DNA from: Thermoplasmata archaeon
GTDB taxonomy: Archaea; Thermoplasmatota; SW-10-69-26; JACQPN01; JAJPHT01
Direction of reading: 5' to 3'
Assembly (NCBI GenBank): GCA_034667685.1
Contig: JAXDQU010000084.1
Span: 1 to 19,701, forward strand
DNA: 19,701 nt
Part shown: one piece after another, positions 6,887 through 17,062 of the stretch
How the letters are laid out: each line of letters begins with the position of its first letter
Position numbering within the stretch: position 1 is the first letter of the stretch
Notes under the pieces: model-generated
Seen by the model: the letters and a program-made list of their open reading frames with translations, nothing else
The model's database searches: none
What the model was told of the DNA's origin: nothing
Program-made: the position numbers and the translations under genes

Positions 6887-8800
6887 ATGGGCGTCGAAGA
6901 CGTACTCCGCGAGATCCGCGACGAGGTCAAGAAGGAGGTCCCCTCCTCCATCGAGGTCACGGACATCGAGTTCGAGGCCGCGGTCCTCGTCATCTACACG
7001 AAGCACCCCGAGAAGTTCGCGGAGGACGAGGACCTCGTGCGCCGGCTCGCCAAGAAGCTGCGCAAGCGCGTCGTCGTCCGACCGGACCCCAGCGTGCTGG
7101 CGAAGATCGAGGAGGCCGACAAGAAGGTGCGCGACCTCGTGCCCGCGGAGGCCGAGATCACGGAGCTGTACTTCGAGCCCGACATCGGCGAGGTCATCAT
7201 CGAGGCGCGCAAGCCCGGCCTCGTCATCGGCCGCCACGGCACCACGCTGAACGACATCAAGAAGGCCATCGGCTGGGCGCCGAAGGTCATCCGCACGCCG
7301 CCCATCCCGTCGAAGACGGTGAAGGACCTTCGTGAATACCTGCGCAGCGTGGCGGACGAGCGCAAGGACATCCTGCACCGCGTCGGCCGGCGCATCTACC
7401 GCGGCGGCGTCAAGGAGGAGCAGTGGGTCCGCTGGACTTCGCTCGGAGGCTACCGCGAGGTGGGCCGCTCGTGCCACCTGCTCCAGACGCAGGACACCAA
7501 GATCCTCATCGACTGCGGCGTCAACTTCAGCAACGACGACAAGGCCTCGCCCTACCTTCACCTCGGTGAAGTTTGGCCGCTCACGCAGCTCGACGCCGTG
7601 ATCCTCACGCACGCGCACATGGACCACTGCGGCCTGATCCCGCTGCTCTACAAGTACGGCTACGACGGGCCCGTGTACTGCACGCCGCCCACGCGGGATC
7701 TGTCCGTCTTGATGCAGCTCGATTACATCAAGATCGCCGCGGCGGAAGGCAAGAAGCCGCCCTACGAGTCGGACCACGTGCGCGAGTGGGTCAAGCATTG
7801 CGTGACGCTGGAGTTCGGCGACACGACGGACATCGCGCCCGACGTCAAGCTCACGTTCAGCAACAGCGGCCACATCCTGGGCTCGGCCGTCTCGCACTTC
7901 CACATCGGCGACGGCTTCTACAACGTGTGCTGCACGTCGGACATGAAGTACGAGCGCACGTGGCTGTTCAACCCGACGAACAACAAGTTCCCGCGTCTCG
8001 AGACGCTCATCATCGAGGCGACGTACGGGGGCCGGAACGACTTCCAGCCCACGCGCCAGCAGGCCACGGACCAGATGAAGGAGATCTGCCAGCGCGTGCT
8101 CACGCGCGGCGGCAAGGTCATCGTCCCCTCCTTCGCCGTGGGCCGCAGCCAGGAGATCATGCTCGTGATGGAGGAGCTCATCCGCAACGGCGACTGCCCG
8201 CGCGTGCCAGTCTACCTCGACGGCATGATCTGGGAGGCCACCGCCATCCACACGGCCTACCCGGAATACCTGAACAACGAGCTTCGGAACGAGATCTTCC
8301 ACGAGGGCTCGAACCCGCTCCTCAGTGACATCTTCATCCGCGTCGACTCGTTCGAGATGCGCCGCAAGGTCGTGGACAGCGACGAGCCGTGCGTCGTCGT
8401 CACCACGAGCGGCATGATGAGCGGCGGCCCGGTCATGGAATATTTCCGCAACTGGGCCGCGGACCGGCGCAACGCGCTCGTCTTCGTCGGCTTCCAGGCC
8501 GGCGGCACGCTCGGACGCCGCATCCAGCAGGGCTGGCGCGAGATCCCCATGGCCGGCCAGGGCGGCCGGAGCAACGTCGTCAAGATCGAGATGGACGTCG
8601 AGACCGTCGACGGCTTCAGCGGCCACTCCGACCGCCGGCAGCTGATGAACTACATCAACAACATCACGCCGAAGCCCGACCGGGTCATCACGATGCACGG
8701 CGAGGAATCGAAGTGCATCGACTTCGCCACGTCGATCCACAAGAAGTACCACATCCACACGGATGCGCCCTACAACTTGGAGACGATTCGCCTGAAGTGA
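6887..8800 (+). CDS. fttA: Archaeal beta-CASP ribonuclease aCPSF1 / transcription termination factor FttA
   Basis: N-terminal KH domains (PGLVIGRHG), metallo-beta-lactamase THAHMDH, beta-CASP FAVGRSQE and GFSGHSD, C-terminal NLETIRL; 637 aa; conserved synteny with psmB. Confidence 0.95.
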   Translation: MGVEDVLREIRDEVKKEVPSSIEVTDIEFEAAVLVIYTKHPEKFAEDEDLVRRLAKKLRKRVVVRPDPSVLAKIEEADKKVRDLVPAEAEITELYFEPDIGEVIIEARKPGLVIGRHGTTLNDIKKAIGWAPKVIRTPPIPSKTVKDLREYLRSVADERKDILHRVGRRIYRGGVKEEQWVRWTSLGGYREVGRSCHLLQTQDTKILIDCGVNFSNDDKASPYLHLGEVWPLTQLDAVILTHAHMDHCGLIPLLYKYGYDGPVYCTPPTRDLSVLMQLDYIKIAAAEGKKPPYESDHVREWVKHCVTLEFGDTTDIAPDVKLTFSNSGHILGSAVSHFHIGDGFYNVCCTSDMKYERTWLFNPTNNKFPRLETLIIEATYGGRNDFQPTRQQATDQMKEICQRVLTRGGKVIVPSFAVGRSQEIMLVMEELIRNGDCPRVPVYLDGMIWEATAIHTAYPEYLNNELRNEIFHEGSNPLLSDIFIRVDSFEMRRKVVDSDEPCVVVTTSGMMSGGPVMEYFRNWAADRRNALVFVGFQAGGTLGRRIQQGWREIPMAGQGGRSNVVKIEMDVETVDGFSGHSDRRQLMNYINNITPKPDRVITMHGEESKCIDFATSIHKKYHIHTDAPYNLETIRLK

Positions 8801-8903
8801 GCGAAGCGAACGAAGGCGAATCGGCGATAAGTTGGAGGGGGGCCGCCGTCTCCGCAGAGCGGCGAGCGCCCTACAACTTGGAGACGATTCGCCTGAAGTG
8901 AGC
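8765..8903 (+). mobile_element. 101-bp self-complementary mini-insert duplicating the aCPSF1 3' end (38-bp perfect direct repeat)
   Basis: gcgccctacaacttggagacgattcgcctgaagtgagc at 8765-8802 and 8866-8903. The insert contains GTGAGCGAAGCGAAC, an imperfect antisense copy of the repeat (8814-8843) and a small hairpin cgccgtctc-cgca-gagcggcg. The repeat is observed; mobility is inferred. Confidence 0.6.
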
Positions 8904-14573: not shown

Positions 14574-15422
14574 CTATTGCCGCCCGACGACCATGATGAC
14601 GCGGCCGCCCTTGAACACGCGGATGGTGCCCGAGGACGACACGACGATGGCGAGCGCCTTGGAGGAGCGCGTGATGCTGGCCGCGGCGATGTGGCGCCCG
14701 CCCAGGCCCGATTGCACCTCGACCGCGCCCTCCGTGTCCACGTAGCGGCCCGCCGCCACGACGCAGCCATCGCCGCGCACGATGAACGCGCCGTCGATCT
14801 GGGCGAACTCCTTGGCCGTCTCCCAGAGGCCCTCGTCGAGGATGTTGCGGTCCTTCTCGGGGTGCCCCTCGAACGGGTTGAGCACGGCGGGGCGCGAGTG
14901 ACGCATGACCGAGTCCGTGTCGCCCACCACGAAGAGCGTGCCCACGGGCTTGCCCTCGCGGCCCTCGCGCGCCAGCTCCACCGCGAGCTTCAGGAGCCGC
15001 TCCACGACGCGCAGGTCCACGCCGTCCTCCAGCTCCTCCTGGAGGTGGACGATCTCGACGTCGCGCTGCACGTCGTAGTGCATCACCATGTCCACGGCGT
15101 CGCCCGCGGCCACCATGACGATGACGGAGTCGTGCGCGGTCAGCTCGCCCGCGAAGAAGGCGCCCAGCAGCACCTCCTTGACCTGCGGGAGGACGTTGAC
15201 GCTGCCCGAGATCGGCTGCGCGAGCTTGAGCGCGTGGCGCATCTTGGGCGCGTAGGTCTCGATCAGCTCCCCGTTGCCCGAGGCGAGGATGACGGGCAGG
15301 CGCATGGCCTCCAGCGTGGCGCGCACGACGTCCGCGCGGTCCGTCACGAGCACGACGAGCGTCGCCTCGAAGCGCTCGCTCAGGCGCTTGGCGGTCTCAA
15401 GGAGCACGCGCGACTTGTCCAC
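14574..15422 (-). CDS. dacZ: Diadenylate cyclase (DisA_N/DAC domain), archaeal DacZ type
   Basis: ELAREGREGKPVGTLFVVGD, EFAQIDGAF (DGA motif) and GLGGRHIAAA (RH motif), with an N-terminal regulatory domain; GTG start. Confidence 0.85.
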   Translation of the reverse strand: MDKSRVLLETAKRLSERFEATLVVLVTDRADVVRATLEAMRLPVILASGNGELIETYAPKMRHALKLAQPISGSVNVLPQVKEVLLGAFFAGELTAHDSVIVMVAAGDAVDMVMHYDVQRDVEIVHLQEELEDGVDLRVVERLLKLAVELAREGREGKPVGTLFVVGDTDSVMRHSRPAVLNPFEGHPEKDRNILDEGLWETAKEFAQIDGAFIVRGDGCVVAAGRYVDTEGAVEVQSGLGGRHIAAASITRSSKALAIVVSSSGTIRVFKGGRVIMVVGRQ

Positions 15423-15472
15423 TGCGTGGCGGAAGGCGCGGACCAGACTTCATGCTTGCGTCGCAGACGTCC

Positions 15473-15528
15473 GGGCTCCGGACTCCGGGCTCAAGGCTCC
15501 GGAGCCCAGAGTCCTGAGTCCGGAGCCC
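15473..15528. repeat. Palindrome built from heptamer repeats (CCGGGCT/CCGGACT-like)
   Basis: gggctccggactccgggctcaaggctcc | ggagcccagagtcctgagtccggagccc: 28-bp arms with 4 mismatches. Confidence 0.85.
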
Positions 15529-15549
15529 CGAGCCCCCGTGAGCGGTCGA

Positions 15550-15696
15550 TCAGCAGTATTTCCGAGGATCCGCGATCATGCCCTCGATGGCGCTCGCGGC
15601 GACGGTGGCGGGGCTCCCGAGATAGACCTCGGCCTGGCTCGATCCCATCCGCCCCTTGAAGTTGCGGTTGCTCGACGAGATGCACCGCTCGCCGGG
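15550..15696 (-). pseudogene. Displaced second copy of the leuC 3' end ([48 protein letters not shown])
   Basis: 46 codons encode exactly the same residues as the leuC C-terminus at a 250-bp offset; 20 of them are synonymously different. Confidence 0.85.
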
Positions 15697-15951
15697 CGCG
15701 ACACGGCCGAATCCGCCCGTGGGCGGAAACGCTCGCTTCGCTCGCTTTCGGCCTGTCGCGGCGGGAGAACGCTCGCCCGTCATCGGATGGTGGGCATCAA
15801 CTCACGTATTTTCTGGGGTCCGCGATCATGCCCTCGATGGCGCTCGCGGCGACGGTGGCGGGCGAGCCGAGGTAGACTTCAGCTTGGCTCGACCCCATAC
15901 GGCCTTTGAAGTTCCGATTCGATGACGAGATGCAGCGTTCTCCCGCCGCGA
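15697..15951 (-). mobile_element. 250-bp structured insert that supplies a recoded leuC 3' end
   Basis: 5-bp core TCGCG at both ends (15697-15701, 15947-15951); internal antisense to the recoded gene segment; GCGAGCGAAGCGAGC at 15731-15745 (- strand); hairpin at 15712-15727. Mobility is inferred. Confidence 0.65.
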
Positions 15952-17062
15952 GGATGCCGCCGGCCGCGCCCATGCACGGGCCGCAGCCGGGCGTGCCGAC
16001 GACCGCGCCGGCCTCCATGAGCGCCTGGAGCGTGCCGTCGTTCATCGCCTCGATCATCTGCGTCTTGCTCGCGGGCGTCACGATGAGGCGCACGTCGGGG
16101 TGGACCTTGTGTCCCTTGAGGATCCTCGCGGCCTCGCGCAGGTCCTCGACGCGGCCGTTGGTGCACGAGCCGAGGAACGCCTGGTCCACGGTCTTGCCCA
16201 CGACGCTCGTCACGGGGTGGACGTTGTCGACCGCGTGCGGGCACGCGACGCGCGGCTCCAGGCGGCTCACGTCGAAGCGGCGCTCGTCGCGGTAGCGCGC
16301 GTGCGGGTCGGCGGTGGCGAGGAAGGGGAGGTCGGTCTTGCCGCGCGCCGCGAGGTAGGCGCGCGTGATCGCATCGGGCGGGACCATCGCGGCCTGCGCG
16401 CCCATCTCGATGCCCATGTTGCAGAGCGTCTGGCGCTCCGGGACGCTGAAGCCCTCGATCGTCGACCCGTAATACTCCACGGCCCCGTAGTCGGCCCCGT
16501 CGGCGCGCACGTCGCGGATGATCTCCAGCGTGACGTCCTTGGCATACACGCCGCGCGGAAGGGCGCCGTCCACCTGGATGCGCATGGTCTCGGGGACGCG
16601 CAGCCACAATTCGCCCGCGGCCCAGACGGCGGCCATCTCGGTGGCGCCCACGCCGTAGCTGTACGCGCCCAGCGCGCCGTAGGTGCAGGTGTGCGAGTCG
16701 GTGCCCACGATGTGCATGCCCGGCAGCACGTGCCCCTTCTCGGGGAGCACCTGGTGGCAGATGCCCTCCTTCATGTCGTAGAAGCTCTCGATGCCCTGGG
16801 CCTTCACGAACTCGCGCACGATCTTCGCCTTGGTGGCCGTCTCGATGTCGGGCGCGGGGCTGCGGTGGTCGAGCGTGACGACCATGCGGCCCGCGTCGAA
16901 GACGGTGCGGACCGGGATGCCGCGGAAGATGGTGCCGATGAGGGCCGCGTTGTCGTGGCTCATCACCAGGTCGACCTTGGCCGTGACGACGTCGCCCGCC
17001 CGCGCGTCGGCCCGACCGCCCGCCCGCGCCAGGATCTTCTCGGCCATCGTGCGCCCAGCCAT
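15797..17062 (-). CDS. leuC: 3-isopropylmalate dehydratase / homoaconitase large subunit (archaeal LeuC/HacA type)
   Basis: [36 protein letters not shown] ([4Fe-4S] Cys) and [11 protein letters not shown]; 421 aa. Substrate specificity cannot be resolved from the sequence by eye. Confidence 0.85.

Follow-up and report, generated by a model that had tools for sequence, protein, structure and literature searches.

At the 3′-end of an aconitase-family large-subunit gene, a 250-nt insert (positions 15702-15951) was identified in the window, i.e. the whole 19,701-nt stretch of DNA analysed here, which belongs to contig C84 of a Thermoplasmata archaeon genome (G000). At a probability of roughly 0.45, we read this insert as belonging to a family of very small gene-end replacement cassettes that encode no protein, are confined to one lineage and would move as a folded single strand. 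The insert brings a second gene end, S_r, which is now in use, together with a conserved hairpin (H) and an inverted copy (X′) of part of that end, and it leaves the resident end, S_d, displaced downstream; the same layout recurs at at least 12 loci in G000, and empty sites are found in its relatives.

The insert and its fold

The gene (15797-17062, minus strand; PF00330, E = 8e-103) encodes 421 aa with S_r, and its body (15952-17062, minus strand; PF00330) is ordinary up to the junction, the final 150 nt before which carry no unusual codons. In hairpin orientation the order is resident gene end, H, X′, a loop with the stop codon, new gene end and gene body. The displaced native 3′-end S_d (15550-15701, minus strand; C-terminal PF00330 match, E = 5e-12) reads ..APGERC..PRKYC*, with its stop codon at 15550-15552, and terminates as ..GCGCGA exactly at the hairpin foot. 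H (15702-15756, no strand assigned), recovered by pattern match on the window's contig, is a 55-nt long variant of the family hairpin, namely CACGGCCGAA ... TTCGGCCTGT with one C bulged, and it encloses a small hairpin, TCCGCCCGTGGGCGGA (15712-15727), as well as the motif CGCTCGCTTCGCTCGC (15731-15746), the opposite strand of which is GCGAAGC. X′ (15756-15788, no strand assigned), found by an inverted-repeat search, repeats, in inverted orientation, the stretch of the cassette-borne end that lies next to the junction, and an 8-nt spacer (15789-15796) separates it from the in-gene stop codon (15797-15799). S_r itself (15797-15951, minus strand), delimited by sequence and codon comparison, reads ..AAGERC..PRKYVS*. 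The two ends form a direct repeat of 146 nt with 82% identity and a spacing of 250 (15556-15701 and 15806-15951), within which a 44-nt block (15569-15612) is identical to 15819-15862.

Just downstream of S_d lies a 62-nt palindrome (15470-15531) of TCCGG/GAGCC-type units, the 31-nt arms of which are 84% complementary; it belongs to a separate palindromic repeat family, of which other G000 contigs carry at least 10 more members that are 80-95% identical. An Rfam search of 15000-16500 at a lenient threshold returned 15 matches, all below their own gathering scores: 14 were miRNA-like and fell on the palindrome (15457-15545), and one was a weak ALIL match at 15860-15895 (18 bits versus 50).

The initial annotation had described an exact 18-nt inverted repeat with a second pairing arm inside it, both matching the recoded in-gene bases rather than the displaced copy, and these observations were borne out. 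The arms 15756-15773 and 15934-15951 are 100% complementary over 18 nt, which is the longest perfect inverted repeat in 15697-15951, whereas dinucleotide shuffles of that segment averaged 8.1 with a maximum of 12, and 0 of 300 reached 18. The second arm is present as 15778-15788 and 15917-15927, 11 nt with 91% complementarity. At all five positions that distinguish the two gene-end copies within the 18-nt arm, X′ follows the in-gene, recoded bases, and the displaced copy at 15686-15703 pairs less well with 15754-15771 (78%).

The insert (15702-15951, 250 nt) was then folded as DNA and as RNA, circular and linear, each against 200 shuffles, a control that the initial annotation had proposed, and it folded far better than the shuffles throughout. 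As a DNA circle it reached −73.7 versus −50.3 ± 3.6 in shuffles (z = −6.5) and as linear DNA −73.5 (z = −4.9), while as RNA the z-scores were −7.5 for the circle and −6.7 for the linear form. In the circular minimum-energy structure the helix 55-72:233-250 of the insert abuts the helix 1-54, so that the two would stack as a single stem across the would-be junction; the continuous stem that had been claimed is therefore real in the circular fold, and it recurs at at least 12 loci in the genome. The chromosomal arrangement of displaced end, hairpin and inverted copy (15660-15800) was unremarkable (z = −1.78, with 12 of 200 shuffles folding as well).

A circular single-stranded form of the insert is possible. 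One explanation built on it is a closed single-stranded circle, the folded stem of which is recognised by a dedicated site-specific recombinase in the manner of attC or CTX, with X′ and S_r co-evolving. The stem that becomes continuous only with the ends joined and the fold so far above shuffles speak for such a circle, but closing it gains only 0.2 kcal/mol, and with the excision and enzyme data given below we regard this explanation as unlikely.

Divergence and origin of the two gene ends

Over 49 codons S_r and S_d differ by 20 synonymous and 1 non-synonymous codon changes, and their tails read KYVS* versus KYC*. A tally over nine loci gave 46 synonymous versus 8 non-synonymous codon differences, seven of the latter lying in the extreme tails. 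Codons ending in A or T account for 11 of 49 in S_r versus 8 of 370 in the rest of the gene; they begin 5-13 nt past the junction and occur in no relative, nor in S_d. The unusual S_r codons are GGA, GAA, TCA, AAT, AAA, CGT, CAA, GCT and AGA, and at the position where the in-gene copy has Ala both the relatives and S_d have Pro. Two sources of such recoding were tried and rejected, i.e. error-prone copying, as the 27 changes are nearly all synonymous, and a diversity-generating retroelement, as 20 of the 21 differing codons in the aligned body are synonymous and the changes involve all four bases.

Compared with five outgroups, S_r and S_d matched at 112 and 119, 116 and 118, 114 and 112, 111 and 117, and 107 and 105 of 146 positions, respectively, so the two ends are roughly equidistant from the outgroups and S_r is not a recent derivative of S_d. 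Moreover, S_d has 0 private non-synonymous changes in 49 codons, its last residue aside, where about 9 would be expected by our estimate had it been unused. The undecayed S_d and the equal outgroup distances together suggest that both ends evolved as working gene ends before they were placed side by side, and, judged from these codon comparisons, the in-gene end appears to be the newcomer, the cassette having brought an allele with its own history. It is accordingly doubtful that the structure co-evolved with the synonymous recoding, as the initial annotation had supposed, since S_r looks like an independently evolved allele, as far from relatives as S_d.

A local origin was also weighed. By our reasoning, a nascent strand that copied the gene end, switched template or folded back at the hairpin and resumed would yield the order S_d-H-X′-loop-S_r with X′ matching S_r, the copies diverging only later, and identical or near-identical copies do exist on contigs C82 (0 of 5 codons differ) and C76 (2 of 24). 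However, the lack of decay in the unused S_d, the nearly equal outgroup distances of the two ends, and the finding that G000 and its relative G001 have a common S_r and X′ next to different S_d make a local duplication very improbable.

Only one gene end and no insert were found at the aconitase-family gene in all seven relatives examined; the site was likewise empty at the MutS-like gene in 5 of 5 relatives, and at the gene on contig C19 in all 4 relatives with a match. No donor lineage with the same S_r at the aconitase-family gene was found, the seven relatives being empty and the stretch itself being present in three soil runs only.

Two side observations concern synonymous changes at gene ends. 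Ser codons switch strikingly often between AGC and TCG/TCC in gene-end copies (in the window, in L177, at the S7 loci and on C13, C31 and C88), a switch that is unreachable by single synonymous steps. In addition, in same-genus comparisons the last 49 codons of the aconitase-family gene had about twice the synonymous differences of the preceding 49 (15797-16099; sense 964-1257), namely 22 versus 9 between S_d of G000 and G003 and 17 versus 9 between G003 and G004, as if gene ends in the clade had been recoded repeatedly.

The same architecture at other genes

The base of H is conserved as ACA-C-GGCC ... GGCC-T(A/G)T with one bulged C, and about 20 copies are present in G000, among them an 80% identical one on contig C72, where a MutS-like gene ends in the same arrangement. 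The pattern ACACGGCCG..CGGCCTRT was counted 15 times in G000, 5 times in G003 and once each in G006 and G008, and 0 times in the other 37 relatives searched; the reversed-pattern control also gave 0. A looser structural scan yielded 32 matches versus 9 in the control, of which 21 were assigned to the H family and 19 of these listed by locus. In the 19 aligned copies, compensatory changes were found in 5 of the 9 stem pairs while the stem base was invariant: the hairpin base ACACGGCC / GGCCTRT is present in all 19, with one bulged base and one mismatch in the structure and no GTT/AAC cores. Such a conserved bulged base and lower stem below a covarying upper stem resemble a protein-recognised hairpin, as a recombinase acting on a circle would use.

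The archaeal family searched for H holds 9 genomes, and outside it no member was found among the matches listed from genome and viral contigs with the loose hairpin pattern. Those matches were chance ones in GC-rich bacteria and phages, only 5 of 239 having a paired inner stem, all of them one unrelated phage hairpin; the metagenome contig L185 was rejected as a chance match as well, being AT-rich and without the architecture. Two copies, C55 and C11, sit in frame within genes, and no second copy of the C55 unit was found in the genome. For hairpins without a nearby repeat, no second gene-end copy was found up to 40 kb away, a distance at which a large element would have shown.

Nine well-defined 3′-end loci are identical in architecture, and three further short cases (C12, C68 and C124), judged by eye, fit it. 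In each of the nine the resident end stops exactly at the hairpin, at ..GA|CAC, and the right-hand copy spans from the stop codon to the junction, with the stop-codon loop often preceded by a GCTTCGC-type motif. X′ starts at the junction, the join coincides each time with the end of the X′ complementarity, and X′ always matches the cassette-borne gene end, never the displaced one. The duplicated piece measures 14-173 nt (9 of 9 loci); it is bounded in every case by the junction and the gene terminus, so that its length tracks the distance to the terminus. Besides at least 12 loci in G000, this layout was observed in G001, G002, G003, G004 and G008 and on two metagenome contigs, and the H-family targets that could be named by Pfam are S2, S7, S10, RadA, GrpE, dihydroorotate dehydrogenase and a MutS-like protein. 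Pfam also names FttA, at a gene of the window with a duplication at another hairpin, and RadA and FttA mark the organism as an archaeon. In G004, a paralogous aconitase-family gene carries a 213-nt duplication with a variant hairpin five codons off the window's junction, which is an event independent of the window's insert.

Four gene-start versions were found as well, at PIN-like and transketolase-like genes of G003, a trpG-like gene of G008 and on contig C39 of G000 (gene names by eye), and there a GGAGG ribosome site and a start codon come with the cassette. The stop codon of the upstream gene is still overlapped by the displaced start, which is thereby identified as the native one. Copies at gene starts differ at the protein level, as orthologues would, the proteins being less conserved there.

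The S7 gene allowed the same junction (gene end AKSAR*) to be compared among lineages. It is filled in G000, G001, G002, the metagenome contig L186 and contig C61 of G004, and empty in G003, contig C75 of G004, G005, G006 and G007. The new S7 end spells Ser as AGC, TCG or TCC depending on the lineage, and the inverted copy changes with it by double or triple changes, so that the pairing is kept, perfectly over 16 bp in G002 and 13 bp in L186 and with one mismatch in G000 and G001; the compensatory changes that the initial annotation had suggested looking for in homologous inserts are thus present. G000 and G001 have S_r and X′ in common at S7, while S_d (Ser AGC versus TCG) and H differ, which argues that the unit of inverted copy plus new end travels independently of the resident end. 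The covariation of X′ and S_r at S7 agrees with a co-evolving circle, and it could also stem from X′ being re-copied off the new gene end at each formation.

These regularities bear on an explanation that needs no element, in which a related lineage donated a segment that comprised its version of the gene end and, downstream, a flank with a passive hairpin; this segment would have entered by a homologous crossover in the gene and an illegitimate join before the resident end. Such a recombination scar would account for S_r behaving as a diverged orthologous allele, for the patchy and clustered divergence between S_d and S_r, for the orthologue-like protein differences of the 5′-end copies, for targets that are conserved genes with the best inter-lineage homology, for the mosaic alleles in other samples and for the failure to find an enzyme. 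But at no fewer than 12 loci the join is found at one and the same base of the conserved hairpin, and each time it coincides with the end of the X′ complementarity, which random microhomology joins would not do; the unusual codons start 5-13 nt past the junction instead of at a variable point deeper in the gene; and an inverted copy of the last codons in the donor flank goes unexplained. We consider it the main rival, though an unlikely one.

Since k-mer direct-repeat scans were too noisy in this 71% GC genome, they were replaced by a protein-level scan blind to hairpins, in which a C-terminal pentapeptide plus stop was repeated within 450 nt downstream 39 times, versus once for reversed peptides. 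By our own reading of the 39, six are low-complexity, two come from a single locus read in another frame and about two dozen represent genuine gene ends. Several of these genuine gene-end duplications carry other hairpin types, so the architecture is common to several hairpin families.

Presence, loss and possible movement of the cassette

The stretch is present in three soil runs and in no RNA run, and natural populations are polymorphic for the cassette. A 1920-nt contig of run X2, which stems from a different sample and study, skips 250 nt with no other difference on either side; its joint, 15568→15819, lies inside the 44-nt block and fits both sides, and the resulting allele without the cassette ends as a chimera, with the new end by the junction and the resident end by the stop. 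Runs X3 and X4 cover parts of the stretch. The X3 contig, the gap of which at 15692-15814 is uninformative, has resident-type bases at 15878, 15881, 15884, 15893 and 15905 and new-type bases from 15912 to 15951. The cassette is thus lost by recombination between S_d and S_r, which leaves recoded scars of varied length. Precise excision at the junction was not seen in the contigs of four runs, as both the insert-free and the mosaic allele arose by recombination inside the duplicated gene end, which counts against a circle cut out by a recombinase. A circle junction occurred 0 times in the genome's own assembly, and no such joint appeared in the contigs of the four runs, which is a weak test since rare circles are invisible in contigs. 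As a separate observation, contigs of X1 and X2 join 15335→15565 with 27 other letters in between; one side has 25 letters and may come from another organism or a repeat.

No enzyme was found that could be assigned to the cassettes. Y1/HUH transposases (PF01797) were found in none of 5 genomes, of which G000 is 99% complete, whereas the control search was positive in 6 of 14 known genomes. Five tyrosine recombinases (PF00589) are encoded in G000, on contigs C34, C1, C25, C79 and C78 and none on the window's contig; the one on C79 lies about 30 kb from the hairpin copy there, and the presence of these genes does not track the hairpin counts. At the copies examined no recombinase gene adjoins the hairpin, a further point, with the missing Y1 transposase, against the circle and its recombinase.

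A cassette consists of the conserved bulged hairpin H, X′, a short loop and S_r; the loop holds a stop codon, which in the gene-start versions gives way to a ribosome-binding site and start codon. S_r, a complete and apparently independently evolved copy of the target gene terminus, becomes the working end, while the resident S_d is pushed outward, intact but unused. In the proposed mechanism, the unit would move as a folded single strand in which X′ pairs with gene-end sequence of the cassette itself or of the target; this pairing would bring the resident end, by its 3′ terminus, up to the foot of H (..GA|CAC) for joining, and the other side would be joined via the homology of S_r and the gene body. 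The chemistry might be carried out by a candidate nuclease/ligase or by host repair enzymes, and the intermediate could be either linear or a closed circle. A folded single strand is suggested by the covarying hairpin and by a join that lies precisely at the hairpin foot, just where the X′ complementarity ends. A further step, that the cassettes are a new class of gene-free archaeal mobile DNA, a folded and possibly circular strand in which X′ serves as a base-pairing guide choosing the insertion point, seems unlikely to us.

Several points weigh against the replacement cassettes moving as a folded strand. No enzyme has come to light, as Y1/HUH transposases were not found and the tyrosine recombinases are unlinked; neither a linear nor a circular intermediate was observed; the sole losses seen are homologous recombination and not the reverse of the proposed reaction; and several unrelated hairpin types have the same architecture, which a general property of hairpins in recombination would fit equally. 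Nor does this reading explain how a cassette first forms for a new target, and no lineage that could have donated the S_r of the aconitase-family gene was recognised.

If the cassettes are self-mobile, they would be among the smallest mobile units known, with the target chosen by base pairing and not by a protein-recognised site. Should X′ indeed act as a guide, the design would be sequence-programmable, unlike integron or phage attachment sites, the spare gene-end cargo would make insertion harmless, and recurrent gain and loss would produce unnoticed bursts of synonymous change at core-gene ends, including the Ser AGC/TCG switches. Even as recombination footprints, they would imply that core genes (S2, S7, S10, RadA) swap ends between lineages with breakpoints fixed by hairpins. 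Gain and loss leave recoded stretches that can mislead analyses of codon usage, selection (dN/dS) and phylogeny at gene ends, and the displaced ends and in-frame copies can mislead gene callers.

We did not find this kind of insert described: none of the papers found in the literature searches reports a hairpin cassette without genes that carries a spare gene end together with its inverted copy. Integron attC sites and the CTX phage hairpin are folded single-stranded recombination sites, and the insert resembles them in its short imperfect hairpin with an unpaired base and in a site complete only in the circular form, and it resembles attC also in its small, possibly gene-free units and in arrays by repeated insertion. 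Unlike attC/CTX, it has no RYYYAAC/GTTRRRY cores, integron integrase, attI platform or dif target, its outer stem is target-gene sequence, and the cassette restores the gene end. An integron cassette was rejected, as the core sites R″ RYYYAAC and R′ GTTRRRY are absent and there is no integrase on the window's contig, and the same missing attC core motifs tell against an attC-like recombinase. In rhs/CDI C-terminal displacement and in the C-terminal duplication by fungal mitochondrial mobile ORFs, new gene ends are stacked before displaced ones; those bring new toxin tips or a homing-endonuclease gene, whereas here the protein is unchanged and no gene travels. An archaeal bulge-helix-bulge intron was rejected by eye, H having a single bulged base and one mismatch and not two 3-nt bulges around a 4-bp helix.

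A parallel at the gene end is prophage e14 in E. coli icd, a 15-kb element with its own integrase and a displaced icdC fragment (PMC13626634, citing Hill et al. 1989). The insert is like e14 in that it carries its own last codons, keeps the gene intact and leaves the resident end downstream unused, and in that the two ends differ by many synonymous changes and loss of the insert gives a chimeric gene (PMC13626634). Both a functional gene-end copy and a displaced resident end were found here, and no integrase in the insert. The present inserts differ from e14 in being 50-250 nt long without any gene, in having a conserved hairpin and an inverted cargo copy, and in that one hairpin family targets many different genes.

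Insertion with long, variable target duplication is described, in the sections consulted, for restriction-modification genes of bacteria, and no archaeal case survived the screen (PMC2853133); no transposase is involved, and the mechanism is given there as unknown with double-strand breaks suggested (Nobusato et al. 2000; Furuta et al. 2010, PMC2853133). Here, too, direct repeats flank the insert, as do the repeats of tens to hundreds of bp there, and a relative's empty site holds a single copy (PMC2853133): our repeat is 146 nt, and all 7 relatives examined, like the X2 contig, have it only once. The hairpin, the inverted copy and the alignment of the repeat with a gene terminus are features of the present insert that those sections do not describe.

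REP/REPIN, MITE-like and Rickettsia palindromic elements (RPEs) also are short GC-rich palindromes, and like them H has about 20 copies in one lineage, often after stop codons (PMC12306157, PMC2229807, as far as consulted); the in-frame copies C55 and C11 recall what the part of PMC2229807 consulted reports for RPEs. Different from REP/RPE as portrayed there, H comes without a RAYT/Y1 gene in the genomes searched and lacks terminal inverted repeats flanked by short target duplications of constant length, and the portions of these papers at hand describe no repeat that brings a second gene-end copy (PMC12306157, PMC2229807). Two related candidates were rejected, namely IS200/IS605-derived PATE or REP/RAYT elements, as Y1 HUH genes were found in none of the 5 genomes and duplications of 14-173 nt occur where none are expected, and a MITE, as the duplication length varies over 14-173 nt and is not fixed.

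Tandem units, as would be expected if a circle integrated repeatedly at a regenerated site, were found in L184, at the G003 PIN-like gene and on contig C61 of G004. At the start of the G003 gene, PIN/VapC-like by eye, two tandem 62-nt units lie at L029 1480-1603 and L022 1-110 (the end of contig C47 and the start of C27), each bringing GGAGGAG and ATG, with the displaced start overlapping the upstream stop codon; the repeat breaks the assembly there. The S7 array on contig C61 of G004 (L199 1-420) consists of two super-units of three different hairpins each, and after every hairpin come an inverted copy, a stop codon (taa, taa, tca) and a separate synonymous version of (A)KSAR*; the same MAG also carries the empty S7 allele on contig C75.

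Other hairpins were seen between duplicated gene ends as well. A ~90-nt element (..GGCTTATCGCCCCCGAAGC..GCCGGCTGGTACGCCAGCCG..) lies between such ends at five G000 loci (C31, C75, C81, C88 and C111), with recoded copies around it at some of them. Within the window, the end of an FttA/aCPSF1-like gene (6887-8800, plus strand) is duplicated as two identical 34-nt copies, gccctacaac..ctgaagtga, at 8767-8800 and 8868-8901; the part of this segment (8767-8901) between the copies holds a GCGAAGC motif, another kind of GC-rich hairpin and, as ggcgaatcg, a partial inverted copy. This arrangement matches the architecture of the aconitase-family insert, with a hairpin outside the H family.
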